Assembly: GCA_963823555.1 (NCBI GenBank)
Contig: CAWGMA010000001.1
Span: 2,144,001 to 2,208,000, forward strand
DNA length: 64,000 nucleotides
Source: Candidatus Eiseniibacteriota bacterium
GTDB taxonomy: Bacteria > Eisenbacteria > RBG-16-71-46 > CAVPCR01
Reading direction: 5' to 3'
The notes below the pieces were generated by a model. That model had not been told where the DNA came from, did no database searches, and saw nothing but the letters and a program-made list of their open reading frames with translations. Numbering within the stretch: position 1 is the first letter of the stretch; every line of letters starts with the position of its first letter. Shown in pieces: positions 6,463 through 51,092 of the stretch. The position numbers were made by a program, and so were the translations under genes.

Positions 6463-6779
6463 TGGGACGCAGCCGAGCATCATCTCCCTCCGGTCTCTGA
6501 AGAGAGGATAAGATGATGATGAAATGGGGCTTTGTGTTCCAGGCGAGGATCGCACTGGCAGCTGTCTCCGGCGGGGCCAGACTTCGTCGGAGGGAAGGGC
6601 CGGATCGATAACCAATATCGCCACCGTCCTTCCGCATGAAGCCGCTCTCGGTCCTGGGCTGCGAGCATACGGGCTACTTCGTCCCGTGGCAGGCGCCGGC
6701 AACACGGCGTTGACGTCTTCCTGCGGCCCTCCTACGATCTACTCGGAGGCCAAGACCCGGCTTGCCTTGGGGTGGCTCG

Positions 6780-9700
6780 ATGGATCACCAGGATCCGCGT
6801 CATGATCCACCGCCGGCAACACGGCGAAGGAAGGATGGCGAGGAAGCCGATGCGACAGCCTCGATCGGCGACCTGGTTCGCTCGATTGCCTCCCAGTTCG
6901 AGCTGGTCATGGGCCGACCGGAACGAGTGGCCGACTTCTGCTCCCGCCTCCAACAGCAGATCAGTCATCCGCCGACCGCCGCGGAAGCGGCACAGCTCGA
7001 AGAGCTGATCCCGCTCCTCTCCCTCAAGGGGGGAGACCTTGCAGCCCCGCTGTTCGATCTCCTGGCGCGAGTTGCCAGCGTCTGCGGTGCCCCATGGCCC
7101 TTCCTCGCCGGGATGCTCGCCGCCCGCGATCCCGAACTCGGGCGCCGCGCCCTGCACCTGACCGCGCAGCTCGCCGAGTCTGGAATGATCCCCATCGACG
7201 AGGAGAAGGCCCTCTTCCTCGCGCGGCAGGTCGAGAGCGAAGGCTCCCTCTTCCGTGAAAGCACTTCGTTGCGAACGATCGGGCAGCTCGTCAGCCGATT
7301 GCCGGCCGCGGGCGCCGCGCACCCGGTGCTCGACCTCTACCGCCGCGCGCCCCCCGACCCCCTCTCCCGCCTGGCGGCGCGCCTCCTCGATCTCGACAAC
7401 CAGCCGGCATCCAGCCGGCTCGCGAGGGAACTCCTGGGACGCGATGCCTATAGCTTCCTCCACCCCTATCTCGACTACACCCGGGCGTCCCATTTCGATC
7501 TCCTGCACCTCGTGCCCGAGCGTGGCCAGCCTCCACCCGCTCTCCCTTCGCTTCGCCGCACCGAAACCACCTGCGGCGCGGAGCTTCTGCGCGAGGTGAT
7601 CGCAGCCCTGGGCTGGCACCGCATCAATCTCGGCCTCGAGGTCACGCCGACCATCGGCGTCTCGATCGGCGATTCGATTCCCTTCCTGGTGTCGCCGGCC
7701 GAGGCGCAGCTCATCGCGTCCTGCACCGGCGCACGGCGCGTCTCCGAGTCCTTCATCTTCATCGCGCATGGCGGCCTGCCGGTGGATCAGCCGGGCGATC
7801 ACGAGCAGGGGAGCACGGTCGCCCGATTCCGGGCCTATAACCTGGCGCACGCCGAGGTCCTCGCCGACATCCTCGACGTGGCGGCACTCACCGGGGAGAA
7901 GACACGGCGGATACTCAGCCGGATGGACGAGATCGTCAGCGACTTCACCGCGCTGTTCGCCGCCATGAGTGAAGAATGCGAAATTCTTCCTGCCGTGTAC
8001 GCGGAACTCAGACAACGAGTCACCACCGAGCTGGAGAAGGAGGATGTCCATCCTCAGCTCTCGCCCGAGCTCACGAGACTCGTTCAGATGTTCGAGGATC
8101 CGGGATCGCTGGCGGACGTGAGGACGCTTCACGGCCTCAAACGCTACCTCCACCAGCGCGGGCTCAAGCTCGGCCTGCGACTGGTCGCCGCGGGCGCGGG
8201 GACCATGCGCACGGTGAGCCTTGTTGTCTCCAATCGCCGGCGAATCCTCCGCACTGTGGCCGCTATCCAGTATGTCGACTTCGAACCAACCACACCGCAG
8301 TTCAGCGCAGGACCGGAAACGGCATCGACCGTCGGACTGCCCTTCCCCGTCTCCGTGCTCGTGCATGCGTACGGCACCCAGCTCCTTCATGGCCAGGAGA
8401 GCTTCCCGAGCATCAAGATCTTCTGCTATGGCAACGAGGTCCACTACTACATCGCGTTCAAGAATCACCCGGCTTTCCTGCGCATCGATTTCTCGCCTCC
8501 GCTCAAGGGCGGCATGATCGATCTCGAGTACTTCGGTGTCAGCAACTACGAGCTGTCCGCCCACCCCAACCCGGCGCTGGACTCGATCCGGCTGTTCTTT
8601 GGCCGCCTCGATTTCGATGTCCAGATCGACGGTACGCGGATCCACGCCCGCTACGACAAGGAGCGGGCCCTCGACCTGGGAGAACTGTGTGACGCAGCCG
8701 GAGCCTTGTGCCGGCTCATTCCCTTTCTCATGGATGTGGACTGGATCATCGGCGGCCTGGATCTCGACCGCGACGCCCGCGCCAGGGTGGCCCGGGCCTG
8801 GGCCGACCGATTCGCGCTGTCGGGGACGTTGCCCATCGAGCAGCTCTTGACCCGGGACCGTAGGGGCATCCTCCAGGCCGTGGAGACGGGTCCGGCCGGG
8901 GAGCGCGAGGTGCCGTGGTCGGGAGAAGGGTCCTATCGCGATCGCCTCCATCTGCCGTCGGCCGATCTTCTCCTTCCCTTGCACTCGGCACTGGAAGAGC
9001 TCGGGCTGGACATCGTGTCGTTCCCGACACCAGGCGAGAGCCAGGGCGTGGGGGCGATGGCGCTCGAGCGCCTCCTGCTACGCCCCCTGCGGGAGGCGGT
9101 GGCCCGGGGCGAGCTGATGGTGACACCCGACGGATTCCGGAAGTGCCCACCCCAGAGGTTCCAGCGGAAACATGAGGCGGAAGCGCTGGCCGAGATCCTG
9201 GGCCGGGATGACACGACCATCAGAGAGGCCGCTCTGCTCGGCCAGCTGGTGGCGCCGCTCGAACGAACCCTCAGCTTCCAGACCACCGGCAGCGTGAACG
9301 GCTACGAGGTCCAGCGGGCGCGCTTGCCCTTGCTCGGAGAAAGCCTGGGGCTCCACGTGCTTCGCGACGCAGGTGGAATCGTCCGCCTGGCCGTCTTCAC
9401 CCACGGCGAGTCGATCTACAAGCGCCGGGATGACCCCAATGACACCTGGCGCTCGAACGAGAGCCTGAGCGTCCCCGAGCTCACATTGCTCCTCCGCCGA
9501 TCGAATTACCTGGCTCCCGGCGTGGAGTCGCCCGGGGAATGGGAGGCCGAGGAGGCGGAGAGGATCCGGGAGATGTTCGGGCGCACGAGCCCGTTCGAAC
9601 CGCGCGCACCGCTCAGGGGCGAGAGCGTGCTCAGGGGGCTCAGGGCATCGCCGGGCCGGGCTGTGGGCAGGGTCCTCTTCAGCACGGTCGGACGCCTGCC

Positions 9701-11920
9701 CGCCGACTTCGACGGCGCGGTCTTGGTGGCCGCCTCGGTGCGGCCGGAGGACAGCATCGTCCTCCACCATGCCGCGGGCATCGTCAGTACCGGGGGCGGG
9801 ATTCTCAGCCATGCCGGGCTCATCGCCGTGCAGCTGCACAAGCCAGCCCTCATCATCTCCGGACAGTGGCGAGACGAAGCGGACGGCACCCGCAGCCTCC
9901 TTCACGGCACCTTCGAGTACACGGAGGAAGCACGCGAGATGGGAGGCCACCGCGTCGTTCTCTGGCACGGCATGAAGGAGCGCGAGCACCGGCTGCACGA
10001 AGGAGCCCTGGTGGTGGTGGATGCCGATGCGGGAACGCTGCGTGTCATCGGCCATGACCGGGAAGCGCTGGCCTTGCACGAAGAGCTACGGCTCTTCGCC
10101 GCAGCCAGCCGACATCTGCTGCATGCCACCGACGAGAACGAGATCCTGCGCTTGCGCGGCAGGCAGCTCCAGGCGCGCTACCAGATCGCGAAACTCCTCG
10201 GTCGCCTCAACGATCCGATTGTCGCCCGCCATGCCGTCCACGAGATCCTGCTGGGCGAGGCCTTCGAGCCGGCCGGGGCTCGCGCCCACCGCGCTCAGCT
10301 CTTGTCCCTTGTCCTCGGCAACCCGCGTGTCGGCCCCGCGGCCCGCGACGGTTTGCTCCAGATCGCAAGGGAACTCGACCGCCGCCGTGCGGCGGCGCAC
10401 GAAGCGGCGGAGCGCTGCATCCCGGCCGCCGAATCCGTGTTCGAGATCCTGTGGCTGCGCCTGGCGGTCCGCCGCCTTCACCGCATTCTCGAGGGCACCA
10501 CCACGGCCCTGCTCGAGTGCGGGCTCGATGCTCCCCCACCAGACTCCTTCCTTCCATCCGCCATCGATCAGATGGCGGCTCGCCGGCTTGCCGATCTCAG
10601 GCTCGAGCGGCTTCATGCGCTGAGCGATGCGGCCGTCGGATCCCGGCAGCGGGTCCGGCGACGTCATCTGCTGCGTGAGATCGGACGCCTCGACCTCCTC
10701 CTGGGCAGGCAAGGGCAGCAGGACCGCGCGGCCTCTGCGGATGAGCTCTCTCGATCCGATGCCCAGGCGTGCGCAAGACTCGCCAAGCAGCACATCCTCG
10801 GCCCGGAGGAGGGAGGACTGGAGCTCCATCCCCTTCTCGGCTGGAAGGCGGCCAACCTCGCCGAGATCGGGGAGCTGGGCGGCCTCGCCCACGTCCCGCC
10901 CTGGTTTGCCATCACCCGTCGCGCGTTCAACGAGGTCCTCGCCAGGCCACTCGACCAGACGGCCCCGGCGAGTCCCGAGATCCTCCGGACCAGCCCCACG
11001 CTGGGTGTCGCCATCGATGCGATCCTGGATCGAGCCGACCTCAGCCCGGGGCAGCAGTCGGCGCAGATTCGTGAGCTCTGGGATCGGGTCGCGCTCCCCA
11101 GGGAGTTGATTGCCGAACTCCTGGCCGCCTATCGCCGGCTGGGGGAACTCCTGGCGCGGAGCGAAGACGCGCCACCTGATCCGGTCGGACCCTATGTCGC
11201 CATCCGCTCCTCCAGCCTTGAGGAGGACACCGAGAGCGCCGCCCGTGCCGGTGAGTTCGACACCTTCCTGTTCGTCCGCGGGGAAGATCGGCTCCTCGAC
11301 CCACCTCAGACGGGCATGGAGCGGGCTGTGGACGGAACGGGCGATCCACAACCGCGCGACGCTCGGCACGGGCTCGGGCCGGATCGGCGGCGGGGTCATC
11401 GTCCAGCGCATCGTCCGCTCGCGCGTTTCTGGAGTGCTCGCAGACAGTGAACGTCGCCGAGGGCAATATGCGGGAGATGGTGATCAACGCCGGGCTCGGG
11501 CTCGGCGAGGGGATCGTCTCCGGCGTCGTGGCGGCCGATCAGGTCGTGGTCGCCAAGGGCGGGGACCCGCGACATGAGTCGCTGCGCTTCCGTTACTTGA
11601 CGAGCGACAAGCAGAGCCAGGTCGTCTTCAACGAACGCGCGGGATCGGCACGGTGCGCGCCGAGACCCTCTATCACCAGCGACTTCGCCCCGCACTCGAG
11701 TACGTCGAGCTGTGCGAACTCGTGGCGCATCGCCACCGATCTCGAGGCGGCGTACGGCTACCCGCTCGACATCGAGTTCGGGATCGAGGGCACCCGCCTC
11801 TGGATCCTGCAGGTCCGCCCGATGGCCGTCTATGTCCCGGCGCTCCGCGAGACGCTCGATGATGATCCGATTTCGGCGGCGCCGCCGACCCGCTCTCCCC
11901 ATGAGGAGTCACAGTCATGA
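6780..11920 (+). CDS. Very large (about 1700 aa) dikinase-family protein: long N-terminal region, phospho-His swivel domain, C-terminal PPDK_N nucleotide-binding domain. Frameshifts near the 3' end.
   Basis: ASPGRAVGRV and STGGGILSHAGLIA (His codon 9810-9812), then GWKAANL, IRSSSLEED..AGEFDT, GLGEGIVSG and DIEFG..LWILQVRP across ORFs 6762..11450, 11110..11577 and 11447..11920. Confidence 0.85.
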
Positions 11921-14185
11921 TCCGACGTGAGGATGCTCTCGACTACCACGCGCCGACCGACCCGGCAAGATCGAGCTCCGCGCGACCAAGCCCTGCCTCA
12001 CGCCGCGCGAGATGCGCCTGGCCTACCTGCCGGGAGCGGCCTTCCCGGGCGAGGAGATCGCGAGGACCGCGCCGCCGTCCTTCCGCTACACGTCGCGGGG
12101 CAACCTGGTCGGCGTCATCACCAACGGCACGGCGGTGCCCGGCCTCGGCAACGTCGGGCCGGACGCGGCCAAGCCGATGCAGGAGGGGATCGCCGTCCTC
12201 TTCAAGCGGCTCGCCGACATCGACGTCTTCGACCTCGAGCTGGACACGACCGACCCCGATCGTCTCGATCGAGACCGTCCGCCTGCTCGAGCCGACCTTC
12301 GGCGGGATCAACCTCAAGGACATCCGCGCGCCCGAGGGGCTCTGAACATCTACGACCGGCTGCGCGAGTGCCTCGACATCCCGGTCTTCCACGAGAACCT
12401 CTACAGCACGGCCGTGGTGGCCGCCGCCGCGCTCCTCAACGCGCTCGATCTGGTGGACAAGCGGATCGATGAGGTTCGCGTCGTCATCTGCGGCGCCGGC
12501 ACCGTCGGCATCGGCTGCGCCCGCCTGCTCCTCGGCCTCGGGGTCACGCCGGACAACCTCCTCATCTACGACGTCCACGGCCTGATCCACCCCGACCGCG
12601 ACGACCTGCACGATTACCAGCGCGCGCTTCGCCCGGGAGGAGTCCGGCGCGCCAGCTGGCCGAGGGCCTGCGGGGAGCGGACGTCTTCCTCGGCGCCTCG
12701 GCCGGCGGGGTCTTCACCCAGGAGATGATCCGCTCGATGAGCCGCTTTCCCGTCGTGTTCGCCCTGGCCACGCCCGAGCCGGAGATCGGCTACGAGGCCG
12801 CGCGCGCCAGCCGGCGGGACGTGATCGTCGCCACCAGCCTCGATCGAGCACCCCAACGCCGTCGTCGATCTGCTGAGCTTCCCCTACATCTTCCGCGGCG
12901 CCCTCGACGTCCAGGCCACGCGAATCACCGAGGGCATGATGATCGCCGCGGCGCGCGCTCTGGCCGATCTGGCCCGCGAGGACGTGGTCGAGGAGGTGGA
13001 GCGGGCCTACGGCTACGAGCAGCTTCAGCTTCGGGCCCGAGTACCTGCTGCCCAAGCCGATCGACCCGCGCATCCTGGTGCGGGAGTCGGCGGCCGTCGC
13101 CGCAGCAGGCGATCGAGGAAGGCGTGGCCCGGCGTCCGCTGGACCGGAGACCTACGAGGAGAGCCTGACGGTCCGCCTCGGCACCGGCCGGGAGACGATG
13201 CGCGGGATGATCCTGACGGCGCGCCAGGAGAAGCCCCGCGTCGTCTTCTCCGAGGGCAGCGAGCGAGACGATCCTCCGCGCCTGCGCGCATCCTGGTCGA
13301 CGAGGGGATCGCGAGCCCGATGCTGCTGGGGCGCGAGGAGGAGATCCGGGCCGTGATCGACCGGCTGCGGCTCGACCTGAGCGGGTTCCGATCGTCGATC
13401 CGGCGCGGAGCCCGCGCCTCGAGACCTACGTCGAGGAGTACTTCCGCCTGCGCCGCCGCCGGGGCGTGATGCGGCAGCCGCGGCGCCGCAGCGGCTGCTC
13501 CAGCCCGACTACTTCGCCGCGATGATGCTCCACACCGGCGACGCCGACATGATGATCGCCGGCGCCTCGACGCACTACGTCGAGACGCTGCGGACCATCC
13601 TCGAGGTCATCGGCCCGGCCCCGGGCATCGGGCGTATCTCGAGCCACTACCTGGTGCTGCTGCCCCAGGGACGTGATCATCCTGGCCGACTGCGCCGTGA
13701 ACATCGAACCCGAGCGCCGAAGAGCTGGCCGAGATCGCGCTGCTGGCCGCGCGCACCGCGCGCTCGCTGGGCATCGAGCCCCGGGTGGCCATGCTCTCCT
13801 TCTCCAACTTCGGCAGCGTCGACCACCCTTCGCCCGGGAAGGTGCGCCGCGCCACCGAGATCGCCAAGCAAGCGCGCCCCGGATCTGGTCAGTCGACGGC
13901 GAGATGCAGCTCGCCACCGCTCTCGACAGCGCGCTGCGCCGGAGTACTTCCCCTTCTCCGAGCTCGAGGAGGACGCCAACGTGCTGGTCTTCCCCGACCT
14001 GCAGTCGGGGAATCTCGCCCTCCACCTCCTGCAGCACGTGGGCGCCGGCCGTCCTGATCGGACCGGTGCTGATGGGCACTCGCCTGCCGGCTCACGTCCT
14101 CCAGTACGGAGCCACGGCGGAGGAGGTGGTGAACCTCACGACGATCGGGATCGTGGAGGCCTCGGCGCTCAGGCGCGCGGGATAG
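11917..14185 (+). CDS. MaeB-type malic enzyme homologue (malic domain plus PTA-like domain) with substituted catalytic residues, many frameshifts
   Basis: [62 protein letters not shown] and [13 protein letters not shown]. The ATG overlaps the upstream stop (ATGA). Confidence 0.85.
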
Positions 14186-14353
14186 GGGGTCCGCAGCAAG
14201 ACCCGGTGCGAGGATCTCAAGTCTTGATTGAAGATCTGGCCTATCCAGAAGGTCATCGTGCCGTCCGGCCCTAAACAAAGCGGCGGGCGACCGCATGCGC
14301 TTAAGGTTGCGCCTCCGGCCGCCCGCCGCGTGCAATGTGAAAGGAACGGGGAC

Positions 14354-15336: not shown

Positions 15337-15615
15337 TCAATCCGGCGTGTACTCGCGCAGGCGGTCGGCGAGCCTTTGCGCCTCGAGCTCCTCGCCCGCA
15401 TTCAGGCGCCCGAGCCACTCCTCGATGATCGCCTTCGCCTCCTGCTTCCGCCAGCTGCGCAGGAACCCATCGAGATAGTGCTCGCCGGCGAGCGCCCGGT
15501 TGATCTCGGTCTCGCGGGTGTGGTCGTTGAGTTCGGTGAAGTACACGACCTTGAAGCGGCGGTTGAACTCCGCCTCGCGGTAGATCTCGAACATCACCTT
15601 CTCGCCGGCGAGCAT
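15337..15615 (-). CDS. Small hypothetical protein (92 aa), last gene of the radical SAM/activase cluster
   Basis: MLAGEKVMFEIYRE..FKVVYFTELNDH..EINRALAGEH..DGFL. GGAGGGAG RBS; starts 14 nt after the upstream stop. Confidence 0.75.
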   Translation of the reverse strand: MLAGEKVMFEIYREAEFNRRFKVVYFTELNDHTRETEINRALAGEHYLDGFLRSWRKQEAKAIIEEWLGRLNAGEELEAQRLADRLREYTPD

Positions 15616-15628
15616 CGTTCTCCCTCCG

Positions 15629-21213
<5,585 letters not shown>

Positions 21214-21366
21214 GGGTCACGTGTCTCCACCTTGCTGCGGCTTAAAGCCTGGGTAGGCGGGGTCACGCCGGAACGGACCAGAAACGCTCGTCCCCGAGCG
21301 CGGATTCCCTCCCTCGATCCGGAACGGTTGGGGGGTTGGAGTTGCTGCGGGGCCGGGCCTGTGATC

Positions 21367-23256
21367 CTAGCCGCCGCATCCTCCGCCACATGAACTCGAT
21401 CCGCCGGCGGGCAGATCGTCATCCCCGGTCGTGCCCTCGATGCGGGGCAGCGCGGCCGGGTGCTCGCGCCGGGCCGACGACGCGGCCGGTGCCGAATCCG
21501 AGATCACCGGGAAGACCTCGTCCGGCCTGCCATGCCCGTTCCCGTTCCCGTTGCCATTGCCGTGGCCGTCGTCCTGGCCCCGGCCACCATCGGAACGCGA
21601 AACCCGCCGCTTCGGGATCCCGACCACGTCGCCATGCTGGGCGCGGTAGTCCTCGATCTCGATGCGGTAGTCGTGCTCGATCTTCTCGCGGAACGTAGGA
21701 CCCGAGTTGTAGGCGCAGAAGGGGTAGACCTTGCCGTCGGGCGCGGAATAGTGGATCACGCAACGCTGGACGCGATCGATCTCGTAATTGTAGGAATCCT
21801 GGAAGTGCATCCCTGCGACCATCAGCGTCTTGAACGTGTACGTGCCGTCGCCTTCACCACGACCCCGCTCCTTGTCGAAGAAGCCCTCGAGAGTCTGCAG
21901 GAAGCGACGGAAGCTCAGGCCGACCGGCGCCCTCTCGGCGCGGAAATACTTGTGCGCCGAGTTGAAGGCCGCGATCTTGGAGAAGGTCTTGATCCGGGCC
22001 CGCTCGGTCTTCTTGGCCAGGTTGTTGAACTCGGTCAGCATCTTCTCGACGTCGATGAACTGAGTGATCGGTGTTGCCTTGCCGTTCTGACCGACGAACA
22101 GGTAGGTGCCCACGCTGCAGTGCGGGTGACAGGTCAGGTGGGTCGTCTTCTCGCCCCTGAGCGCGCTCACGAGCCGCGAGACCGGAGTGGTGCACGGTGT
22201 CGGGTACCAGTCATCGAGCGTGGTGAACCCGGTCTGCTCGCCGATGTCCATCGCCAGATCGGCGAGCGTGTAGCGCATCGCTTCGCGCTTCTTCTGCGCG
22301 ATGCGTCCGGTGAAGGCCACCGGCTGGTAGCTGATGCCCGAGATGACATCGATGTTCTCGATGGCGTAGCGGAGAATATCGCCCACCTGGTGGTCGTTCA
22401 CGCCGCGGCAGATGGTGGGCACGAGAACGATCTTGAGTCCGGCCTCGCGCACGCGCTGGACCGCCCGTTGCTTCATCTCCCAGACCGCCTCGCCGCGCGT
22501 CCGCCGGTAAACATCGTCGGACACACCATCGAACTGCAGGTAGAGAGTGTGAAGCCCGGCCGCCTTCGCGCGCTCGGCCAATCCGGGCACGTTGGCGAAG
22601 GTCTTGCCGTTGGTGGCGACCTGCACGTGGCTGAAGCCGACTTCCTTCGCCGCCGCCACGGCCTCCACGAACCAGGGATAGATGGTCGGCTCACCGCCCG
22701 AGAACTGGACGACGCGCGCCGCCACCGGGCGCATGTCGCGAAGCTGCTGGAGCATCTGCCGGATCTGATCGAGCGGCGGCTCGTAGATGTACCCCGCCTG
22801 GTTGGCGTTGGCGAAGCAAACCGGGCATGTCATGTCGCAGCGGTTGGTGAGATCGACGTTGGCGAGACCGGTGTGCGATGTGTGCATCTGACACACGCCG
22901 CAATCGTCCGGGCACGACACCGCGTCCGGAACGGCCGGATTGGCGATCCCCTCTCCCTCCTCGAAGGTCCAGTTCTCGAGCTTCAGGTAGAGCTCGACGT
23001 TCGAGAAGACGATCTCCTTCACGTCGCCGTGCTCGGGGCAGGTCTTTCCCATCCAGACCTTGCCGTCCTCGGCGAACAGCTGCCCGGGAACGGCTCGCTG
23101 GCACTCCGGGCACAGGCTCCTGGTCGGGCGCGGGAGACCCCGGGCCCGGGGCGGCAGCGCGAAGCCCGATGAAAGCCGATGCCAATCGGGACCCGGCTTG
23201 AGTCCCGGGGGCGCCGCCGGCTTGGGAATCGAGACAGGTTCGGTCGTCGCAGTCAT
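21367..23256 (-). CDS. Radical SAM protein of the MJ0619 / tetraether synthase (Tes, GDGT-MAS) family
   Basis: SLCPEC...KTCPEHG N-terminal metal site, CPDDCGVCQMH, LTNRCDMTCPVCFANA (CxxxCxxC), QFSGGEPT, YLQFDG, TCHPHC and MHFQD.YN...RVQRCVIHY..PDG..YPFCAYN. Confidence 0.88.
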   Translation of the reverse strand: MTATTEPVSIPKPAAPPGLKPGPDWHRLSSGFALPPRARGLPRPTRSLCPECQRAVPGQLFAEDGKVWMGKTCPEHGDVKEIVFSNVELYLKLENWTFEEGEGIANPAVPDAVSCPDDCGVCQMHTSHTGLANVDLTNRCDMTCPVCFANANQAGYIYEPPLDQIRQMLQQLRDMRPVAARVVQFSGGEPTIYPWFVEAVAAAKEVGFSHVQVATNGKTFANVPGLAERAKAAGLHTLYLQFDGVSDDVYRRTRGEAVWEMKQRAVQRVREAGLKIVLVPTICRGVNDHQVGDILRYAIENIDVISGISYQPVAFTGRIAQKKREAMRYTLADLAMDIGEQTGFTTLDDWYPTPCTTPVSRLVSALRGEKTTHLTCHPHCSVGTYLFVGQNGKATPITQFIDVEKMLTEFNNLAKKTERARIKTFSKIAAFNSAHKYFRAERAPVGLSFRRFLQTLEGFFDKERGRGEGDGTYTFKTLMVAGMHFQDSYNYEIDRVQRCVIHYSAPDGKVYPFCAYNSGPTFREKIEHDYRIEIEDYRAQHGDVVGIPKRRVSRSDGGRGQDDGHGNGNGNGNGHGRPDEVFPVISDSAPAASSARREHPAALPRIEGTTGDDDLPAGGSSSCGGGCGG

Positions 23257-23636
23257 CGGATGGTCTCCCTCCGCGCGCGATTCGGGGAAAGGCCCGCGAC
23301 CTTTCCCACCTCATGGGTCCCCTTATCCGTCCAATCTGCTTTCCCCGCAACGGGTTGTGCCCGAAACGCCGAAATCCGGAGGTGAGTGGTCGGAGGGCCC
23401 AGCGAGCGGACGCCTGCCATGGCCACGTGAGGGTCGCGACGGGGCATCCCCGGCGGCGGCGAGGCCGGGTGAGGCCGGATTCGTCGGGGCCTCGTGTACT
23501 CCGGGGGAGGAGCGGCAGGAGCCCGCGGGGACACTCATCTGCTACACTGTTGAGCTCGATTGCTCTGTTCGTGGCCGCAACGGGGGGCGCGCCCCACGGT
23601 GTGCCCGGAACCAGGCCCCCGAGGCAAGATAACTGC

Positions 23637-24068
23637 ATGGAAGCCAAGATCTTCACAGTGGCCGAGGCCAACAATGCCCTGCAGCGTGTCGTGAAGCCGA
23701 CCATGCAACGGCTCACCGCGCGCATCGCCGCCCTCGATGCGCTCAAGACCGAGACCGAGGTGCTCGAGGTCGTCGTCGACTCCGGCGCCTCCGAGACCAA
23801 CCCCGATCGTGTCCAGCTCAAGTTGCTCGAGCAACGCGAACGGCGGATCCAGACCGAGATCCGCGACTCGATCGAGACCATTCAGGCCGCCGGCGGGGTC
23901 ATCAAGGATCCCCGCGCCGGCCTCGTCGACTTCTTCTCGATCTACGACGGCCGGCTGGTCTGCCTGTGCTGGAAGATCGGCGAGGATCGCATCCGGTTCT
24001 GGCACACGGTCGAGGAGGGCTTTCGCGGCCGGCGCCCGCTCGGAGTGCGCGCGCCGCGAGAGGAATAG
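23637..24068 (+). CDS. DUF2203 family protein
   Basis: FTVAEAN N-terminus and IKD...GLVDF.....GR.V.LCWK.GE..I.FWH..EEGF.GRRPL signature. Confidence 0.85.
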   Translation: MEAKIFTVAEANNALQRVVKPTMQRLTARIAALDALKTETEVLEVVVDSGASETNPDRVQLKLLEQRERRIQTEIRDSIETIQAAGGVIKDPRAGLVDFFSIYDGRLVCLCWKIGEDRIRFWHTVEEGFRGRRPLGVRAPREE

Positions 24069-24304
24069 CAGGCGTCGCCGTCGAGAGCGCGGCAACTGGT
24101 CCCGGCCCGGTGCGACGCACCGGGCCGCATCGTTTGCCGCCGGTTCTCTGCCGCTTCGCGAACGAGCCGCCGCGGAGTGACCACACTCCGGACCCGCAGC
24201 CGCGGCTTGCATGCATTAATGGACTAACCTATCTTCATATCCTCTATCCGAGGTCCCGGGTCCTCTTCGTCCCACCTGGGCTCATTCTCGCAGGGAGGCG
24301 AATC

Positions 24305-25384
24305 TTGCAAATCACCGGCTGGGTTGCCGACAAGCCGGGCGCGCCGATGCACCGCTGGGAACGCGAGGCCACACCCGGCCCGCATGAGGTCCTGGTCGAG
24401 GTTGCCGGCTGCGGCGTCTGTCATACGGATCTTGGTTTCTACTACGACGGCGTTCCGACACGACACCCCTTCCCCTTGATTCTCGGTCACGAGGTGAGCG
24501 GCACCGTGGTCGAGGCCGGCCCTGGCAGCGAGTCGTGGGTCGGACGCGACGTGGTCGTCCCCGCCGTGATCCCTTGCGGCCAGTGCGCTGCGTGCGCCGC
24601 CGGTCAGGGCTCCATCTGTCCGCAGCAGATCTTCCCCGGCTGCGACGTGCACGGCGGCTTTGCGACCCACCTCGTGGTGCCGGCCAACGGGCTCTGCGCC
24701 GTGCCCGACCTCGCCGATCCGGCTCACAACCCGCAGGGGCTCGATCTCGCCACGCTCTCCGTCATCGCCGACGCGGTCTCGACGCCCTATCAGTCCATTG
24801 TTCGCAGCGGTCTCGAAGCCGGAGATCTCGCCCTCTTCGTCGGGGCCGGCGGGGTCGGCGGCTTCGGGGTGCAGATTGCCGCCGCCATGGGGGCCGCGGT
24901 CGCCGCGATCGACGTGGATCCGGCCCGTCTCGAGCTCATCGGCCGTCACGGCGCCGCGCTGACGCTCAACGCGGCCGAGCAAGATTTCAAGTCTATCCGC
25001 AATAGCTTGCGGGCCTTCGCCAAGGAACGGAAGATCCCGACCTGGCGGCAGAAGGTGTTCGAAACCTCGGGAACGGCGCGCGGCCAGGAGACCGCCTTCG
25101 GCCTCCTCGGCCACGGCGGCTATCTCGGCGTCGTCGGCTTCACATCCGACAAGGTCGAGCTCCGACTCTCCAACCTGATGGCCTTCGATGCCACGGCTCA
25201 GGGCAACTGGGGCTGCGTGCCGGAGCACTACCCGGCCATCGTCGATCTCGTGCTTGCGGGCAAGGTCGCGTTGACCCCGTTCGTCGAGCAGCGCTCGATG
25301 TCCACGATCAACGAAGCATTCACCGCGTTGCATGCCCGGCGCGTCACGCGCCGCCTCATCCTCATTCCGGAGGAGACGAAGTGA
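24305..25384 (+). CDS. had: 6-hydroxycyclohex-1-ene-1-carbonyl-CoA dehydrogenase (Zn-dependent)
   Basis: GCGVCHTD, GHE, CxxCxxC, ADAVSTPYQ and LSNLMAFDA..GNWGC. TTG start after GGAGG; adjacent to oah and bcr. Confidence 0.9.
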   Translation: MQITGWVADKPGAPMHRWEREATPGPHEVLVEVAGCGVCHTDLGFYYDGVPTRHPFPLILGHEVSGTVVEAGPGSESWVGRDVVVPAVIPCGQCAACAAGQGSICPQQIFPGCDVHGGFATHLVVPANGLCAVPDLADPAHNPQGLDLATLSVIADAVSTPYQSIVRSGLEAGDLALFVGAGGVGGFGVQIAAAMGAAVAAIDVDPARLELIGRHGAALTLNAAEQDFKSIRNSLRAFAKERKIPTWRQKVFETSGTARGQETAFGLLGHGGYLGVVGFTSDKVELRLSNLMAFDATAQGNWGCVPEHYPAIVDLVLAGKVALTPFVEQRSMSTINEAFTALHARRVTRRLILIPEETK

Positions 25385-26493
25385 TGGAACTCAAGGACCA
25401 CCATCTCGCCCCGCCTGCCGCGCACCCCGGCGTGCTCTACGAGGAGCGGCCGCTCCTGGATCTCGAGGGACGCGCCGTCCCCGGCCTGCACACGGTCTGG
25501 ATCACGCTCGACAACCCGCGCCAGCTCAACTCCTATACCACCGACATGGTGAAAGGCGTGATCCTCGGCATGCGCCGGGCCTCGAACGACCGCGCCTGTA
25601 TCGCCGTGGTGTTCACGGGCAGCGGCAACCGGGCCTTCTGCACCGGCGGCAACACCGCCGAGTACGCCGAGTACTACGCCGGCCGACCCGAGGAATACCG
25701 CCAGTACATGCGGCTGTTCAACGACATGGTGAGCGGCATCCTCTCCTGCGACAAGCCGGTCATCTGTCGCGTCAACGGCATGCGGATCGCAGGCGGGCAG
25801 GAGATCGGGATGGCATGCGACTTCTCCGTGACCCAGGATCTGGCCCTCTTCGGTCAGGCCGGCCCGCGTCACGGCTCGGCGCCGGACGGCGGCTCGACCG
25901 ACTTCCTGCCGCTCTTCGTCGGCATCGAGGCCGCCATGGAGAGCTGCACCCTGTGCGAACCATGGAGCGCGCACAAGGCCTTCCGGCTCGGCCTCGTCAC
26001 CCGGGTGGTGCCCGCGCTCAAGGTCGACGGCCGCTTCATTCCCAATCCGCTCGTCATCACCGATCGCTGGGTCGGAGACGAAGGCCAGATCGTCTACGGG
26101 GAAACGCGACCGGGCCAGGAGCGAGCGGAGGGCAAGGCGCTCCTCGAGCGCGGCGAGGTCGATCTCAAGCGTCTCGACCGCACCATCGACGAGTTCGTGT
26201 GGAAGCTGGCCCATACCATGCCCGGCTGTCTCACCAAGACGATCGAGAGCGTGCGCAAGCACAAGCTCGAGCACTGGGATCGCAACAAGGAATCGAACCG
26301 CGCCTGGCTCGGTCTCAACATGATGACCGAAGGGCGAGCCGGCTTCCGTGCCTTCCATGAAGGATCGCGCGAATGCCGGGAGGCCGACTTCCTGCTCCTC
26401 CGCCGCCGTCTCGCCGAGGGCAAGATGTGGGGCGAAGAGCTCACGGCCGAGATCCTCGCCCGGGCGCACGGCAAGACGCCGGCGAACGCGTAG
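25381..26493 (+). CDS. oah: 6-oxocyclohex-1-ene-1-carbonyl-CoA hydrolase
   Basis: WITLDNPRQLNSYTT, AFCTGGNT.EYAEYYAG.P.EYRQYMRLFNDMV, GQAGPRHGSAP.GG.TDFLP and WD.NKE..RAWL.LNM. Confidence 0.95.
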   Translation: MMELKDHHLAPPAAHPGVLYEERPLLDLEGRAVPGLHTVWITLDNPRQLNSYTTDMVKGVILGMRRASNDRACIAVVFTGSGNRAFCTGGNTAEYAEYYAGRPEEYRQYMRLFNDMVSGILSCDKPVICRVNGMRIAGGQEIGMACDFSVTQDLALFGQAGPRHGSAPDGGSTDFLPLFVGIEAAMESCTLCEPWSAHKAFRLGLVTRVVPALKVDGRFIPNPLVITDRWVGDEGQIVYGETRPGQERAEGKALLERGEVDLKRLDRTIDEFVWKLAHTMPGCLTKTIESVRKHKLEHWDRNKESNRAWLGLNMMTEGRAGFRAFHEGSRECREADFLLLRRRLAEGKMWGEELTAEILARAHGKTPANA

Positions 26494-26524
26494 CCCTGCA
26501 GCGACAGGAGGCAGGAGGAAGGTC

Positions 26525-27691
26525 ATGACCGAGCTCGCGGCGCTCGTCGCCCGCGCCGAGGAACTCTACCGGGACTACCGTCTCACGCCGGTGCGCGAGT
26601 GGAAGGCGCGCACCGGCGGGCTCGCCGTCGGCTTCATGCCGATCTACGTCCCGCGCGAGATCCTCACCGCCCAGGGCGTGCTGCCCGTCGGCCTCATGGG
26701 GGGCGGCGACGATCTCGAGATCATCCGTGGTGACGCCTTCTACCAGTCCTACATCTGCCACATCCCGCGCTCGACCATCGAGCTCGGCTTGAACTCGAGC
26801 TACGATTGCCTCGACGGCGTTCTGTTCCCTGCGATCTGCGATGTGATCCGCAACCTCTCCGGGATGTGGAAACTCCAGTTCGCGGACAAGCTCGTGCGCT
26901 ATCTCGACGTGCCGCAGAACTTCGACGGCGCGATCGGCGGTCGCTTCTACCGCCACGAGCTCGAGGAGCTGATCCGGGATCTCGCGGCACGCGGCGCCAG
27001 ACCATACGATCCCGCGGCGCTCGGGGCGGCGATCGGTCTCTACAATGAGAACCGTCGCCTCGTGGCCGAGCTCTATGCGCTCCGCCTGGAGGAGCCATGG
27101 CGCGTACCGACAGCCGAGCTCTACGTGATCCTGCGCGCGGCGCTCGTCCTGCCGGTCGAGGAGTCGACCGCGATGTTCGCCCGCTATCGCGATCTCGTCC
27201 GCGCCGACGCGGAGCGCAAGCCGATGGATCAGGCCCGCGTGGTCCTGACCGGTTCCTTCTGCGAGCAGCCTCCGCTCGGCCTCATCAAGACCCTGGAGCG
27301 CTCCGGCTGTTACATCGTCGACGACGACTTCGTCCAGGTCCACCGTTGGATCCGCGGCGACATCGCCACCGCGGGCGATCCGCTCGGGAACCTGGTCACC
27401 GCCTTCCTCGATCAATCGATCGCGAGCCCGGTGCGCTACATCGGTGCCGACGTCAAGGGGCGGGACCTGGTCGAGCGCGTCGCGGCGAGCGCAGCCGAAG
27501 GGGTGCTGTTCTGCGCCCCGAGCTTCTGCGATCCGGCGCTCCTCGACCAGCCGATGGTGACCCGTGCGCTCGACCGGGCCGGAACTCCCTGGACCGCGTT
27601 CAAGTACGCCGAGAACAACGGCCAGTTCCAGGTCATCCGGGAGCAGGCCGGAACGTTTGCCGACTCGATCAAGCTGTGGAGCAGCGCCTAG
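26525..27691 (+). CDS. bcrC: Benzoyl-CoA reductase subunit C
   Basis: RGDAFYQSYICHIPRSTIELGL, CDVIRNLSGMW, GSFCEQPP, PSFCDPALLDQP and EQAGTFADSIKLWS. Confidence 0.93.
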   Translation: MTELAALVARAEELYRDYRLTPVREWKARTGGLAVGFMPIYVPREILTAQGVLPVGLMGGGDDLEIIRGDAFYQSYICHIPRSTIELGLNSSYDCLDGVLFPAICDVIRNLSGMWKLQFADKLVRYLDVPQNFDGAIGGRFYRHELEELIRDLAARGARPYDPAALGAAIGLYNENRRLVAELYALRLEEPWRVPTAELYVILRAALVLPVEESTAMFARYRDLVRADAERKPMDQARVVLTGSFCEQPPLGLIKTLERSGCYIVDDDFVQVHRWIRGDIATAGDPLGNLVTAFLDQSIASPVRYIGADVKGRDLVERVAASAAEGVLFCAPSFCDPALLDQPMVTRALDRAGTPWTAFKYAENNGQFQVIREQAGTFADSIKLWSSA

Positions 27692-27723
27692 GTGCACCGC
27701 TCGACCCCGGGCAAGGAGAAGCC

Positions 27724-29046
27724 ATGACCAACGATGCCGCGCAGAAGGACTCGAGCCAGATCCGCCAGAAGGACATGATCGCGGATCACTACCGGCGCTT
27801 GGCCCGCGCCCCCGAGACCGGGGACAAGTGCGCGTACACCTTCGTGCCGGGAAACCTGACCGAGCTCCTGCGCGCCTTCGATCTCCTGCCCGTGCTGCCC
27901 GAGATCAACGCCCTGCAGTCGGGGATGCGGGGCAAGTCCCGTGACTTCATCTCGCTCGCCGAGAAGCTCGGCCACTCCGAGGATGTCTGTACCTACGTCA
28001 AGTGCGATCTCGGAATGATGAAATCGGGAAATGTCGGCCCGACGGGCGAGCCGCTGCCGAAGCCCGATCTCCTGCTCCTCTCCTATACCGGCTGCTTCAC
28101 CTTCATGAAGTGGTTCGAGATCCTGCGTGAGGAGTACGATTGTCCGGTGGTCATGCTGCACGTGCCCTACCAGGGAGACGGCGTCATCACCGACTCGATG
28201 CGCCGCTACGTCGTCGATCAGCTCGAAGGCGAGGTGATCCCGGCGCTGGAGCGGGTCTCCGGCCAGCGCTACGACGAGGACCGGCTGAAGGGGATGCTCG
28301 CGCTCTCGGCCCGGGCCGAGGATGATCTGGTCTGGGTGCTCGAAGCGGCCAAGCACCGGCCTTCCCCGATCGATGCCTACTTCGGCGGGGTCTACTACAT
28401 CGGCCCCATCTTCACCGCCTTCCGCGGCATGCCGGAGGCCGTCGACTACTATCGCCTGCTGCGCGCGGAGGTGGCCGAGCGTATCGCCGCCGGCAAGGGA
28501 CCGGTGACCCCGGACGGCGAGATGGATGAGGAGAGGTTCCGCATCGTCGTCGAGGGGCCGCCCAACTGGACGAGCTTTCGCCAGTTCTGGAAGATGTTCG
28601 CCGATGAGGGCGCCGTGGTCGTCGCCTCCACCTACACCAAGGTGGGCGGTGTCTATGACCTCGGCTTCCGCCACGATCCGACCCGGCCGCTCGAGACGCT
28701 GGCCGATTACTGCATGGGCTGCTACACCAATCTCAACCTGCCCTCGCGCACCGACATGCTGTGCCGTTATCTCACCGAGTATGACGCCGACGGGCTCCTC
28801 ATCAACTCGATCAAGAGCTGCAACTCCTTCAGCGCCGGTCAGCTCCTGATCCTGCGCGAGGTCGAGCGACGGACCGGACGGCCAGGCGGCTTCATCGAGA
28901 GCGACCTCGTCGATCCGCGCTACTTCTCCGCCTCCAACATCAAGAACCGGCTCGAATCGTACTTCCAGATGATCGAGCAGAAGCGCCAGGGCGCCGCGGC
29001 ACGGGCGGCGGCGGCCGGCGGCACACCCTCCGGAGCCTCATCGTGA
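27724..29046 (+). CDS. bcrB: Benzoyl-CoA reductase subunit B
   Basis: TFVPGNL.EL, PEINALQ, GHSEDVCTYVKCD, SYTGCFTFMKWFE, SIKSCNSFSAGQL and DLVDPRYFS. Confidence 0.93.
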   Translation: MTNDAAQKDSSQIRQKDMIADHYRRLARAPETGDKCAYTFVPGNLTELLRAFDLLPVLPEINALQSGMRGKSRDFISLAEKLGHSEDVCTYVKCDLGMMKSGNVGPTGEPLPKPDLLLLSYTGCFTFMKWFEILREEYDCPVVMLHVPYQGDGVITDSMRRYVVDQLEGEVIPALERVSGQRYDEDRLKGMLALSARAEDDLVWVLEAAKHRPSPIDAYFGGVYYIGPIFTAFRGMPEAVDYYRLLRAEVAERIAAGKGPVTPDGEMDEERFRIVVEGPPNWTSFRQFWKMFADEGAVVVASTYTKVGGVYDLGFRHDPTRPLETLADYCMGCYTNLNLPSRTDMLCRYLTEYDADGLLINSIKSCNSFSAGQLLILREVERRTGRPGGFIESDLVDPRYFSASNIKNRLESYFQMIEQKRQGAAARAAAAGGTPSGASS

Positions 29047-30356
29047 AATACTGTGTCGGCATCGATCTTGGATCCACGACGACCAAGGCCGTGGTCCTCG
29101 GCGAGTCCGGGACCATCCTCGGGCGCGGCATCACCAATAGCCGCAGCAACTACACCGTGGCCTGTGCCGTCGCCCTGGGCGAGGCGCTGATCAACGCCCG
29201 CTTCGGGCTCATCGCTCAGGAGCTCGAGCGAGCCCAGGTGTCCCCTCCCAGGCAGGCGGAGTGGCTCGCCGAGATCGAGCGTCTGTTCCGCATGCACCAG
29301 TACCGCCACCAGCTCCAGGTGCTGGCCGAGGTCATGCACGAACAGCTGACCCGCGACCACGGGGGGCAGGAGCATGAACTCCGCGACGCGCTCGAGTCGA
29401 TCCTCGACCACATGGAGGCGGAGACCGCCGAGCTCTATGCCGCCGGCGCCCGGCGCAAGAGCGACTTCTTCCGCGACCTCGCCGGCAGCCGGTATGCCGC
29501 CCACGCCGAGGAGATGAGCCGCGCGCGGGGCCTCGGGTTCGACCGGCTGGTCGGCTGCTTCGACCGCGCCATCCTCGACGTGGAGAACCGGCCCTCGGCG
29601 GAGAATGCCTTCGAGACCCTGATCGCCGCCGCCCTCGAGGCGATGCCCCAGGCGACCGCGGAGCTCCGCAAGGCGGTCGACCGCGCCGCGCGAGAGGAGC
29701 TCACCCGCGCCCGCTCGATCGGCACCGGATACGGGCGGCAGACCCTCCCCTTCCCCAAGGAGCAGATTCGCTCGGAGATCCTCTGTCATGGCCTCGGCGC
29801 GCACGCCATGTTCCCGGGAACCCGCACCGTGCTCGATATCGGCGGCCAGGACACCAAGGCGATCCAGGTCGACGATCAGGGGATCGTCACTTCGTTCCAG
29901 ATGAACGACCGCTGTGCCGCCGGTTGCGGGCGCTACCTGGGCTACATCGCGGACGAGATGAACCTCGGCTTGCACGAGCTGGGACCGATGGCCTGCGAGT
30001 CCTCGCGCCCGGTGCGCATCAACTCGACCTGCACCGTGTTCGCGGGCGCCGAGCTCCGCGAGCGACTCTCCCTCGGCGAGCGCCGCGAGGACATCCTCGC
30101 CGGTCTCCATCGCGCGATCATCCTCCGCGCCATGTCGCTGCTCGCCCGCTCGGGAGGGATCACGGACGAGTTCACCTTCACCGGCGGCGTGGCCAAGAAC
30201 CCGGCGGCGGTCGACGCGCTCTCGGGACTCATCCAGGACCACTACGGGACCCTCACCACGAACATCTCGCCCGATTCCATCTATACCGGAGCGCTCGGGG
30301 CCGCGCTCTTCGCGCATCGCGAGATCGATCGAGTCCCGGCGGAGGCGGCATCATGA
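29043..30356 (+). CDS. bcrA: Benzoyl-CoA reductase subunit A (ATPase)
   Basis: GIDLGSTTTKA, GITNSRSNY, GTGYGR, SEILCHG, DIGGQDTK and MNDRCAAGCGRYLG. Confidence 0.93.
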   Translation: MKYCVGIDLGSTTTKAVVLGESGTILGRGITNSRSNYTVACAVALGEALINARFGLIAQELERAQVSPPRQAEWLAEIERLFRMHQYRHQLQVLAEVMHEQLTRDHGGQEHELRDALESILDHMEAETAELYAAGARRKSDFFRDLAGSRYAAHAEEMSRARGLGFDRLVGCFDRAILDVENRPSAENAFETLIAAALEAMPQATAELRKAVDRAAREELTRARSIGTGYGRQTLPFPKEQIRSEILCHGLGAHAMFPGTRTVLDIGGQDTKAIQVDDQGIVTSFQMNDRCAAGCGRYLGYIADEMNLGLHELGPMACESSRPVRINSTCTVFAGAELRERLSLGERREDILAGLHRAIILRAMSLLARSGGITDEFTFTGGVAKNPAAVDALSGLIQDHYGTLTTNISPDSIYTGALGAALFAHREIDRVPAEAAS

Positions 30357-31228
30357 ACGGACCCGGGGACCACGGCGCCCTTGTCGTCGCCGGCATCGAT
30401 GTCGGCTCCTCGGCCGTGAAGGTGGCGATCGTCGAGGATCGCGGCGAGGCGGGCGCCCGGAAGCTCGGCGGTCGCTTCGAGCGCATTCGGCGCCGCGATC
30501 CACAACGGGTCGCTGCCGATCTGTTCACCGAATGCGTCGCGGAGGCCGGCGTCGGGCAGGACGACCTGGCGTACGTGGCGACCACCGGCGAGGGCGAGCT
30601 CATCCCGTTCCGCACCGGGCACTTCTACGGCATGACGACCCACGCCCGCGGCGGGCTCTTCCTCGTCCCCGAAGCCCGTGCCGTCATCGACATCGGCGCC
30701 CTGCACACGCGCGCCGTGCTCATCGACGATCGGGCCAAGGTGCTCGGCTACCGGATGACGAGCCAGTGCGCCTCGGGCTCGGGGCAGTTCCTCGAGAACA
30801 TCAGCCGCTACCTCGGCATCACGATCGACGAGGTGGGTCCGCTCTCGCTCGAGGCCGACGACCCCGAGGCCTGCTCCTCGATCTGCGCCGTGCTGGCCGA
30901 GACCGATGTCATCAACATGGTGTCCCGAGGAGTGTCCACGGCGAACATCATCAAGGGCATTCACCAGTCGATGGCGGGACGCTATCTCCGCCTCCTGGTC
31001 TCGGTCGGGGCGCGCGGGGTGGTCCTCGTCACCGGCGGCCTCGCCGCCGACACGGGCCTCATCGCCGCGCTGGAGGAGGCCGTGGTCGAACAGAAGGCGG
31101 CCTTCACGTTCAAGAGCCATCCCGACTCGGTGCTGGCGGGAGCACTGGGAGCGGCGATCTGGGGGGCCTTCCGGGTGCGCAAGCTCGCTGCCAAGGGAGT
31201 CAACCTCGGCGCCGGAGTGGGGTCGTGA
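30353..31228 (+). CDS. bcrD: Benzoyl-CoA reductase subunit D (ATPase)
   Basis: GIDVGS, TTGEGE, HFYGMTTHARG and MTSQCASGSGQFLENI.RYLG. Confidence 0.93.
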   Translation: MNGPGDHGALVVAGIDVGSSAVKVAIVEDRGEAGARKLGGRFERIRRRDPQRVAADLFTECVAEAGVGQDDLAYVATTGEGELIPFRTGHFYGMTTHARGGLFLVPEARAVIDIGALHTRAVLIDDRAKVLGYRMTSQCASGSGQFLENISRYLGITIDEVGPLSLEADDPEACSSICAVLAETDVINMVSRGVSTANIIKGIHQSMAGRYLRLLVSVGARGVVLVTGGLAADTGLIAALEEAVVEQKAAFTFKSHPDSVLAGALGAAIWGAFRVRKLAAKGVNLGAGVGS

Positions 31229-44914: not shown

Positions 44915-44952
44915 CGGCCCCGAAACCCGCCGCATGGCGGCAGGGCGGTTCC

Positions 44953-46954: not shown

Positions 46955-46958
46955 ACGG

Positions 46959-49738: not shown

Positions 49739-49805
49739 TACGGTGGCCGGTAAGGTCCTTCCCGCCCCCGCTCTCCGCGCTCCCCTTAAGCTCCGCGCGG
49801 CGTTG

Positions 49806-49820
49806 TGCTAGCGTGCGCCC
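49806..49820 (+). promoter_or_regulatory. Putative extended -10 promoter for a leaderless transcript
   Basis: TG-c-TAGCGT at 49806-49814, then 6 nt, then ATG 49821. No Shine-Dalgarno; same geometry as at 6017. Confidence 0.4.
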
Positions 49821-51044: not shown

Positions 51045-51092
51045 CCGGGCGCAGAGATCCGCGATCAGTCACCGGGAGGAAGAGGAGGAGAG

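Follow-up and report, generated by a model that had tools for sequence, protein, structure and literature searches.

The stretch of DNA analysed here (hereafter the window; 64,000 nucleotides of contig CAWGMA010000001.1 from a Candidatus Eiseniibacteriota bacterium, G000:C1:2144001-2208000 in our numbering) encodes a homologue of the tetraether synthase Tes, an enzyme of the radical S-adenosylmethionine (SAM) kind, in one row with genes for a PlsR/PlsA-type reductase pair and a small conserved protein. By analogy with relatives of both enzymes, we lean towards interpreting this row as a membrane-lipid operon, in which ester-to-ether reduction and coupling of lipid tails by Tes would together give rise to ether-linked membrane-spanning lipids. 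The direct basis for this interpretation is the gene order, the family identity of the proteins, the conservation of metal ligands, the predicted fold of PlsR and a recurring linkage between Tes and PlsA; the mechanism of Tes is taken from MJ0619 of Methanocaldococcus jannaschii and the reduction of esters from PlsA and Ger.

Gene order and host of the locus

The four genes, described as co-oriented in the initial annotation, do lie on one strand between positions 15337 and 23256 of the window. Along the reverse strand, the locus is composed of the following features:

23257-23620, reverse strand: leader shared with a divergent DUF2203 gene (local alignment to the leaders of other genomes)
21367-23256, reverse strand: radical SAM enzyme of the Tes/GDGT-MAS family, 629 aa in a single frame (NF045702, PDB 7TOL and its ligand set)
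19281-21168, reverse strand: PlsR-like subunit, about 625 aa on read-through, frameshifted here (alignment to the intact protein of metagenome contig L140, and fold model)
15629-19284, reverse strand: PlsA/Ger-like protein with two PF01869 domains and DUF2229, about 1190 aa on read-through, frameshifted here (Pfam matches and intact relatives)
15337-15615, reverse strand: conserved unannotated 92-aa protein, downstream of plsA (homologues and a confident structure model)

The ATGA overlap noticed initially between plsR and plsA is present at 19284-19281, but it is in frame only after indel correction; an intact relative in genome G016 has the identical overlap (locus L111, 10049-10052). Simple arithmetic puts the chance of finding tes within 10 kb of either of the two DUF2229 loci of the genome at about 0.9%. 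Neither a terminator-like site between tes and plsR nor a sigma-70-like promoter in the leader was found, both searches being weak tests in a high-GC genome, and Rfam gave zero matches in the window. The leader is partly conserved upstream of tes in a second genome of the same genus (G001, locus L021; local alignment score 115, reached by 0 of 200 shuffles) and resembles the leader of plsR in G002, a genome of the same family that has no tes there (score 43, again reached by 0 of 200 shuffles). Alignment scores for the leaders in G004, G016 and G098 were insignificant.

The host is close to Ca. Eisenbacteria, in support of the initial assignment to an uncultured lineage outside the Acidobacteria, and contigs with 0-2 differences to the source over 278-350 bases were found in a freshwater metagenome run (X1); runs X5-X10, which have small shares, do not enter the analysis. 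Its characterization as an anaerobe has to be revised: the source genome (G000; 4.6 Mb in 4 contigs, 92.5% complete) encodes subunit I of a haem-copper oxidase, in which an HPAVY motif is present and which we take to be of the O2-reducing type, and the host is therefore likely a facultative rather than a strict anaerobe.

The Tes homologue and its putative metal sites

The product of the first gene scores 574.6 bits on the NCBIfam model NF045702 (cut-off 450) and 336.6 bits, below the cut-off of 490, on the TrsS model. Its residues 26-541 align to PDB 7TOL, the structure of MJ0619, with 433 bits (E 1.8e-128); the core spans approximately residues 45-545 and is followed by a low-complexity tail. 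Every motif on which the first identification as Tes was based is present: CPEC at position 49, CPEH at 73, CPDDCGVCQMH at 115, CHPHC at 376, RCVIHY at 498 and PFCAYN at 512. In MJ0619 the sites are a rubredoxin-like Fe and three clusters designated N, radical SAM and C, the last with Met439, in addition to a conserved Tyr459 (PMC9433317 and PMC13459092).

Judged from the alignments, the window protein keeps the ligand sets of all four of these metal sites. The rubredoxin-like site C-x2-C-x20-C-x2-H has the spacing seen in MJ0619 (C49, C52, C73 and H76), and the radical SAM motif CxxxCxxC corresponds to C140, C144 and C147. For the N-terminal [4Fe-4S] cluster, C115, C119 and C122 align to C73, C77 and C80 of MJ0619 and are Cys in 46/46 bacterial rows, and either of the candidate His residues at positions 125 and 128 could be the ligand. 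The C cluster is probably bound by C380, C499 and C514, which are Cys in all 19 archaeal and all 46 bacterial rows; of the two Cys in CHPHC, the second alone is invariant, with T, A or P replacing the first in the displayed archaeal rows and S replacing it in 21 of the 46 bacterial ones. M483 is aligned with Met439 and Y503 with Tyr459 (counted on the 7TOL alignment with its 20-residue tag offset).

A quick IQ-TREE phylogeny of 75 rows, with MJ0619 and Sulfolobus Tes outside this set, grouped the radical SAM protein with bacterial and archaeal Tes, as the initial annotation had anticipated. The window Tes pairs with that of G001 on a short branch among the bacterial sequences, at an unresolved fork that also contains 21 archaeal-type rows, and the genome's own paralog group sits on a long branch. 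The set excludes four rows that were short or contained stops, and no more than 11 of the archaeal rows L060-L100 were retained in it. The tail of the protein (window 21367-21620, reverse strand) consists of about 85 aa with Gly-Asn repeats and a short Cys-Gly motif at its end, and the Tes tail on L140 likewise ends with two Cys.

A second Tes-like gene is encoded elsewhere in the genome (G000:C1:1917028-1919322, forward strand, locus L226). Its product scores 313.5 bits on NF045702, below the cut-off, is without the N-cluster cysteines and is similar in kind to Acid_2410 of Solibacter (714 aa); the genes that follow it are presumably cydAB. Geranylgeranylglyceryl phosphate (GGGP) synthase (PF01884) was not found in the 92.5%-complete genome and is likely absent, which makes an archaeal-type substrate for Tes unlikely and a fatty-acid-based one likely.

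The reductase pair and its small companion gene

The middle 5.5 kb of the row is split into many short frames, and the open reading frames of the window gave direct Pfam matches only to PF01869 (part of one activase domain) and, partially, to PF09989. Searching 151 genomes of the phylum at the DNA level revealed intact relatives: in G016, a 606-aa gene overlaps a 1215-aa gene, whose product has two PF01869 domains and PF09989, and a 92-aa gene follows. Read through against the intact L140 protein, the window PlsR aligns over residues 1-625 with 81% identity and 0 stops, and keeps the Cys residues that are invariant across its relatives (C125, C168 and C489). The window PlsA, read through against its relative in G004, aligns over residues 6-1191 with 73% identity and keeps 15 of 16 Cys as well as the activase motifs; a 102-residue in-frame piece of it shares 81-83% identity with two proteins from Bryobacteraceae, 1189-1193 aa in length.

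The PlsR-like protein had zero matches in Pfam (PF06050 included) or NCBIfam and no PDB match by sequence. An AlphaFold model of the L140 protein (predicted local distance difference test, pLDDT, 83) retrieved chains of HadBC (HGD-D), DCCP and benzoyl-CoA reductase (BCR) as its 11 best Foldseek rows, 2 of them with E < 0.001 (best E 1.9e-4), and on the strength of this model PlsR is predicted to be an HGD-D-type partner subunit; a profile comparison of PlsR with the window BcrC was weak (probability 1.3%). The initial assignment to the PlsR/PlsA-type architecture, rather than to the activases of amino-acid fermentation, is thus borne out by the double activase with DUF2229 and the predicted dehydratase fold of the partner. 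A stand-alone single-domain activase of the HgdC/HadI/BcrAD kind was ruled out by the size of the protein, approximately 1200 aa with two activase domains and DUF2229.

This branch of reductases is abundant, 7998 of 7998 and 7999 of 7999 scored candidates having passed, and its named matches come from Bryobacteraceae (PlsA-type proteins of 1189-1193 aa, PlsR-type proteins of 581-598 aa), Blastocatellia, Terriglobia and Planctomycetota. The source genome has a second PlsA/PlsR-type pair outside the window (G000:C1:1698100-1702604, reverse strand), in the order plsA-plsR, whose PlsA is encoded in one frame (1066 aa) and is 53% identical to the type linked with Tes in Glassbacteria, described below.

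The 92-aa protein has 456 homologues (184 cluster representatives at 50% identity), and its gene follows plsA in 5/5 complete plsR-plsA loci of the phylum and in 6 of 14 acidobacterial loci. Its structure model is confident (pLDDT 90), with no Foldseek match at E up to 0.001; Pfam and NCBIfam gave zero matches, and its Atlas clusters are all named 'hypothetical' (0.77-0.80). A likeness to the fatty-acid-binding proteins DegV/FakB was considered and set aside, the best VIA-align Z of 3.9 being too weak to use. The protein is likely an accessory one. In three acidobacterial loci the small gene is followed by a ferredoxin-like gene (L247:3118-3492, L248:3866-4240 and L249:4910-5293), the product of which is a possible electron donor for the reductase.

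Conservation of the row and co-occurrence of its genes

In the Glassbacteria class (13 genomes), tes and plsA lie within about 5 kb of each other on the same strand in 10 of the 11 genomes bearing Tes. This is a different PlsA clade, approximately 28% identical to the branch found in the window and arranged in the order plsA-plsR, and the Glassbacteria-type row (L038, L039 and L171) consists of a SAM hydroxide adenosyltransferase, tes, a DHH phosphoesterase, plsA and plsR. L039 is named Gemmatimonadales, yet its genome falls within the Glassbacteria class sample. Tes stands beside the same different PlsA clade in two acidobacterial genomes (G270 and G410, 2/25 of those with both genes) and on a contig named Vicinamibacterales. 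Since the PlsA-linked Tes proteins of Glassbacteria and Acidobacteriota are not sister to the window Tes in the quick tree, the linkage arose at least twice, and its recurrence with a different PlsA clade argues that Tes and PlsA are likely linked in function.

At the level of whole genomes the two gene types are strongly associated: DUF2229 occurs in 7/7 Tes-bearing genomes of the phylum as compared with 29/199 others, and in 25 of 37 Tes-positive as compared with 29 of 214 Tes-negative genomes among 251 Acidobacteriota, although related genomes are not independent and kinship inflates any test on such counts. Overall, Tes scores above the cut-off in 7 of 206 genomes of the phylum, belonging to 3 families, and DUF2229 was found in 36. 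These tallies probably include G044, a genome flagged as unpublished that also entered the DNA search, but none of the claims depends on that genome alone.

A number of observations weigh against an operon that unites the two activities. The exact row tes-plsR-plsA was found only in the source genome, in G001 and on L140, and in G002 the DUF2203 gene faces plsR with no tes between them. Within the row itself, tes and plsR are 198 bp apart. Among the 7 Tes-bearing genomes of the phylum, Tes adjoins PlsA in 2 and is far from it in 5. The reductase branch occurs without Tes above the cut-off in G004, G016, G098 and family f18, and so it does in all carriers of this branch in the phylum outside this genus. 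In the Acidobacteriota, the PlsR branch was detected in 13 of the 251 genomes, of which 4 have Tes and 9 do not (Fisher p 0.11, or 0.39 without the centre genome); none of 14 acidobacterial loci examined for this branch has tes nearby, the order plsR-plsA being kept in 13. Viewed from the side of Tes, a pls gene is present in 4 of 80 genome loci and 2 of 80 metagenome loci, many of these loci being short or archaeal; among loci that extend for at least 5 kb on both sides, the counts are 1 of 44 for genomes (many of these archaeal) and 0 of 22 for metagenomes. Finally, the second PlsA/PlsR pair and the second Tes-like gene elsewhere in the genome mean that partners could be mixed.

Taken together, the survey of synteny divides the initial expectation in two: the linkage of Tes with PlsA recurs in other phyla, but the exact row is confined to one genus and its reductase branch is mostly found without Tes. 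An obligate pairing of ether formation with tail coupling in one locus is therefore not sustained, given the 9 of 13 Acidobacteriota and all other carriers in the phylum. In this one genus, an older unit of plsR, plsA and the small gene likely acquired (or retained) tes ahead of it.

These distributions are also what would be expected if both modules acted on lipids independently of each other, the reductase making mono- or diethers or plasmalogens, as is necessarily the case in genomes that have no Tes, and Tes making ester-linked spanning lipids or macrocycles, with their adjacency a lineage-specific insertion under shared low-oxygen control. PlsA and Ger are moreover indistinguishable by sequence, and condensation need not prefer ether over ester (PMC13274423). 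Independence of the modules accounts poorly for at least two separate origins of the adjacency, which differ in gene order and in the clades of PlsA and Tes involved, or for the co-occurrence at genome level, and we regard it as a serious but minority possibility.

Two observations were made alongside. Three loci of Acidobacteriota have a gene for a radical SAM protein other than Tes, about 430 aa long, between the plsR and plsA genes of the branch found in the window (L250:8232-9539, L257:7893-9188 and L258:7035-8327). In family f12 (L117 and L118), LolA-like and outer-membrane beta-barrel genes come after tes.

Other functions considered for the two modules

The domains of the pair are homologous to HgdC/HadI/BcrAD and HGD-D, the database names of the branch are those of CoA activases with no tested member found, and immediately past DUF2203 there is a cluster for class I benzoyl-CoA reductase. 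The pair might accordingly be taken for an enzyme of central metabolism that dehydrates or reduces CoA esters, for example in the benzoyl-CoA pathway, with tes an unrelated neighbour. We consider this improbable. The fused double activase with DUF2229 is that of PlsA and Ger and not that of a stand-alone activase of 240-280 aa, the window PlsA is only 24-30% identical to the window BcrA over one domain, and the BCR equivalog models score far below their cut-off on the PlsA-type protein. The bcr genes are on the opposite strand with an activase of their own, and none were present among the scanned neighbours of the pair in other genomes.

It is more unlikely still that the bacterial Tes homologue, with its metal sites kept, uses a substrate other than phospholipid. 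No demonstrated activity of a bacterial Tes was found in the literature searched; the proven spanning-lipid synthases of bacteria are Mss enzymes, and T. maritima and T. ethanolicus are without Tes (PMC13159169). Against this stand the full-length match to MJ0619, including the equivalents of Met439 and Tyr459, and the recurring linkage to PlsA-type genes.

Frameshifts in plsR and plsA

The two reductase genes contain approximately 66 frameshift events, 63 of which are insertions, nearly all of single extra letters. Frameshift-aware alignment of plsR to L140 gave 27 events (25 insertions, 0 stops), and read-through of plsA against the G004 relative gave 39 (38 insertions, 1 apparent stop). A 553-base contig from X1, about 96% alike, is without ten single letters between 19562 and 20024; over the stretch that it covers (19541-20094), the 8 events assigned by read-through add up to an identical net change of frame. 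Because this contig is without ten of them, we conclude that the frameshifts are likely assembly errors. The metagenome contig L140, the Tes piece of which is 91% identical to the window Tes, carries plsR in intact form and the start of plsA as an open frame, and the unrelated cox1 gene of the source genome is likewise in 8 pieces. Indel damage in this assembly is patchy. A malic enzyme with a PTA-like domain (window 11917-14274, forward strand) is frameshifted in the same manner as plsR and plsA.

In G001 plsR and plsA are also broken (15 and 50 events) beside an intact tes, and break positions are common to the two genomes of the genus for 12 of 39 events in plsA, where 6.6 would be expected (P about 0.016), and for 6 of 27 in plsR; errors dependent on sequence context would account for this. 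That the two genes are true pseudogenes in this genus and the locus no longer works, as these coincident breaks might suggest, is the least credible of the alternatives, considering the excess of insertions, the near absence of stops, the 73-81% identity retained, the letters missing from the X1 contig, the intact L140 copy and the fragmented cox1. Intact relatives are better test material than the window copy, since the latter is damaged by assembly errors.

Proposed mechanism and product

In the lipid operon that we favour, the activase domains of PlsA would hydrolyse ATP and pass low-potential electrons to Fe-S sites in DUF2229 and PlsR, and the pair would reduce ester bonds of phospholipids to ether bonds. 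Tes, acting as MJ0619 does, would abstract H from terminal methyls, park the first radical on the C cluster and form the C-C bond, so that the product may be a lipid resembling glycerol trialkyl glycerol tetraethers or glycerol dialkyl glycerol tetraethers (GDGTs), or a mixed ether/ester spanning lipid. We infer co-transcription, the lipid substrate, an alkyl rather than a vinyl ether, the order of the steps and any role of the 92-aa protein; alkyl (Ger) and vinyl (PlsA) ethers cannot be told apart from sequence (PMC13274423, PMC11868695).

Branched GDGTs (brGDGTs), named initially as the product, are doubtful in their canonical form. No convincing FabH and no PlsX were found in the 92.5%-complete genome, which has matches to a FabF-type enzyme, PlsY and an E1 dehydrogenase; a supply of iso-C15 therefore lacks support, making a brGDGT product less likely. 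In addition, no bacterial Tes activity was found in print, and Ger is not distinguishable from PlsA by sequence. A bolder proposal would see in the row a complete minimal gene set for bacterial tetraethers, in which the reductase makes dialkyl ethers, Tes makes brGDGT cores and the 92-aa protein is a third reductase subunit, with facultatively aerobic Eisenbacteria as overlooked brGDGT producers of fresh water and sediments; we offer it as speculation that is more probably wrong than right.

The brGDGTs are widely used as temperature and pH proxies, and their producers and enzymes are poorly known. With tes, plsR and plsA contiguous, the published diether-condensation pathway could readily be tested with three or four genes, and, if our interpretation is true, the locus would add a lineage outside the Acidobacteria to the candidate brGDGT producers. 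The value of the locus is lowered by the facts that the pathway has already been proposed, that the linkage recurs in other lineages and that this copy is damaged by assembly errors.

Neighbouring genes

Divergent from tes, beyond DUF2203, lies an anaerobic class I benzoyl-CoA cluster (window 23966-31243, forward strand), with had, oah, bcrC, bcrB and bcrA above NCBIfam cut-offs, followed by a likely bcrD. Further along the forward strand, the row at 43229-53548 encodes a fatty acyl reductase (PF07993 and PF03015), a 642-aa protein without a family match, a HAD-IB hydrolase, a membrane protein, a zinc dehydrogenase, a LarAH14/15/16-like protein (below cut-off) and a YegS-type lipid kinase. Some of its parts recall the myxobacterial elb/FAR ether-lipid genes (PMC9131029), and the row is possibly a second route to fatty alcohols or ethers.

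At 6762-11450 (forward strand) a 1562-aa frame starts with a long N-terminal part that has no annotation, followed by PEP-utiliser mobile and PPDK_N domains whose order is unusual. On another contig of the genome, a B12-binding radical SAM frame of 587 aa (L239:1297-3057, G000:C3) reached no specific family; in length it is near the GrsA/B homologue Acid_5783 of Solibacter (597 aa; PMC10087280).

Comparison with known systems

The window Tes is most directly comparable to MJ0619 (PDB 7TOL/7TOM; PMC9433317, PMC8941075), with which it shares a full-length alignment, the same metal-site residues and the Met and Tyr described above. Both pockets of crystallised MJ0619 were occupied by phospholipids from E. 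coli (PMC9433317). The window protein differs in that it belongs to a bacterial host in which no GGGP synthase was found, and in its extra C-terminal tail of about 85 aa.

The reductase pair resembles PlsA/PlsR of Clostridium perfringens (CPE1195/CPE1194) as well as the Ger proteins of Thermotoga maritima (Tmari_0479) and Desulfatibacillum alkenivorans in having two PF01869 domains, DUF2229 and a dehydratase-fold partner (PMC13159169, PMC9702350); this double activase plus DUF2229, the BBD layout, is reported to be conserved in producers of alkyl ethers (PMC13159169). The window pair belongs to a divergent branch: its subunits are longer, about 1190 and 620 aa as compared with 1004 and 420 aa, plsR precedes plsA, PF06050 is not matched and the conserved 92-aa gene is an addition. 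HgdC/HadI with the 2-hydroxyacyl-CoA dehydratases, class I BCR and DCCP:DCCP-R have the same ATP-driven electron-transfer domain and the dehydratase fold, but their activases are stand-alone proteins of about 240-280 aa without DUF2229, and their substrates are CoA esters or small molecules.

A role of bacterial Tes homologues in brGDGT synthesis was put forward in 2022 (PMC8941075), and a 2025 source describes their activity as still unconfirmed (PMC11868695); Tes was found in only 3 of 14 Acidobacteria that produce iso-diabolic acid (PMC13159169). Both points count against the pathway favoured here. In a survey of mostly open literature, with some supplements outside its scope, we found no tested bacterial Tes, no report of tes-pls gene clustering, no paper joining Eisenbacteria with tetraether lipids and no main text that mentions the Acid_ locus tags of Solibacter.

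Among the closest counterparts is the pathway proposed for brGDGTs in Solibacter usitatus from PlsAR and Tes (PMC10087280), with which the idea itself is already known. The proposed proteins in Solibacter Ellin6076 are Acid_0921 (PlsR, 589 aa), Acid_0922 (PlsA, 1188 aa) and Acid_5929 (Tes); identity with the clostridial proteins is only 30% for its PlsA and 21% for its PlsR (PMC10087280, Table S6). The three gene types are those of the window, and the lengths match its branch. From these lengths, the domain layout and the Bryobacteraceae matches, the window reductase and Acid_0922/Acid_0921 appear to belong to the same branch; cluster look-ups of the branch named no Solibacter. The tes and pls locus tags of Solibacter are approximately 5000 apart, whereas the window genes are contiguous. 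What is new here is a four-cofactor Tes that is contiguous with the reductase branch proposed for Solibacter, together with a conserved 92-aa companion gene.

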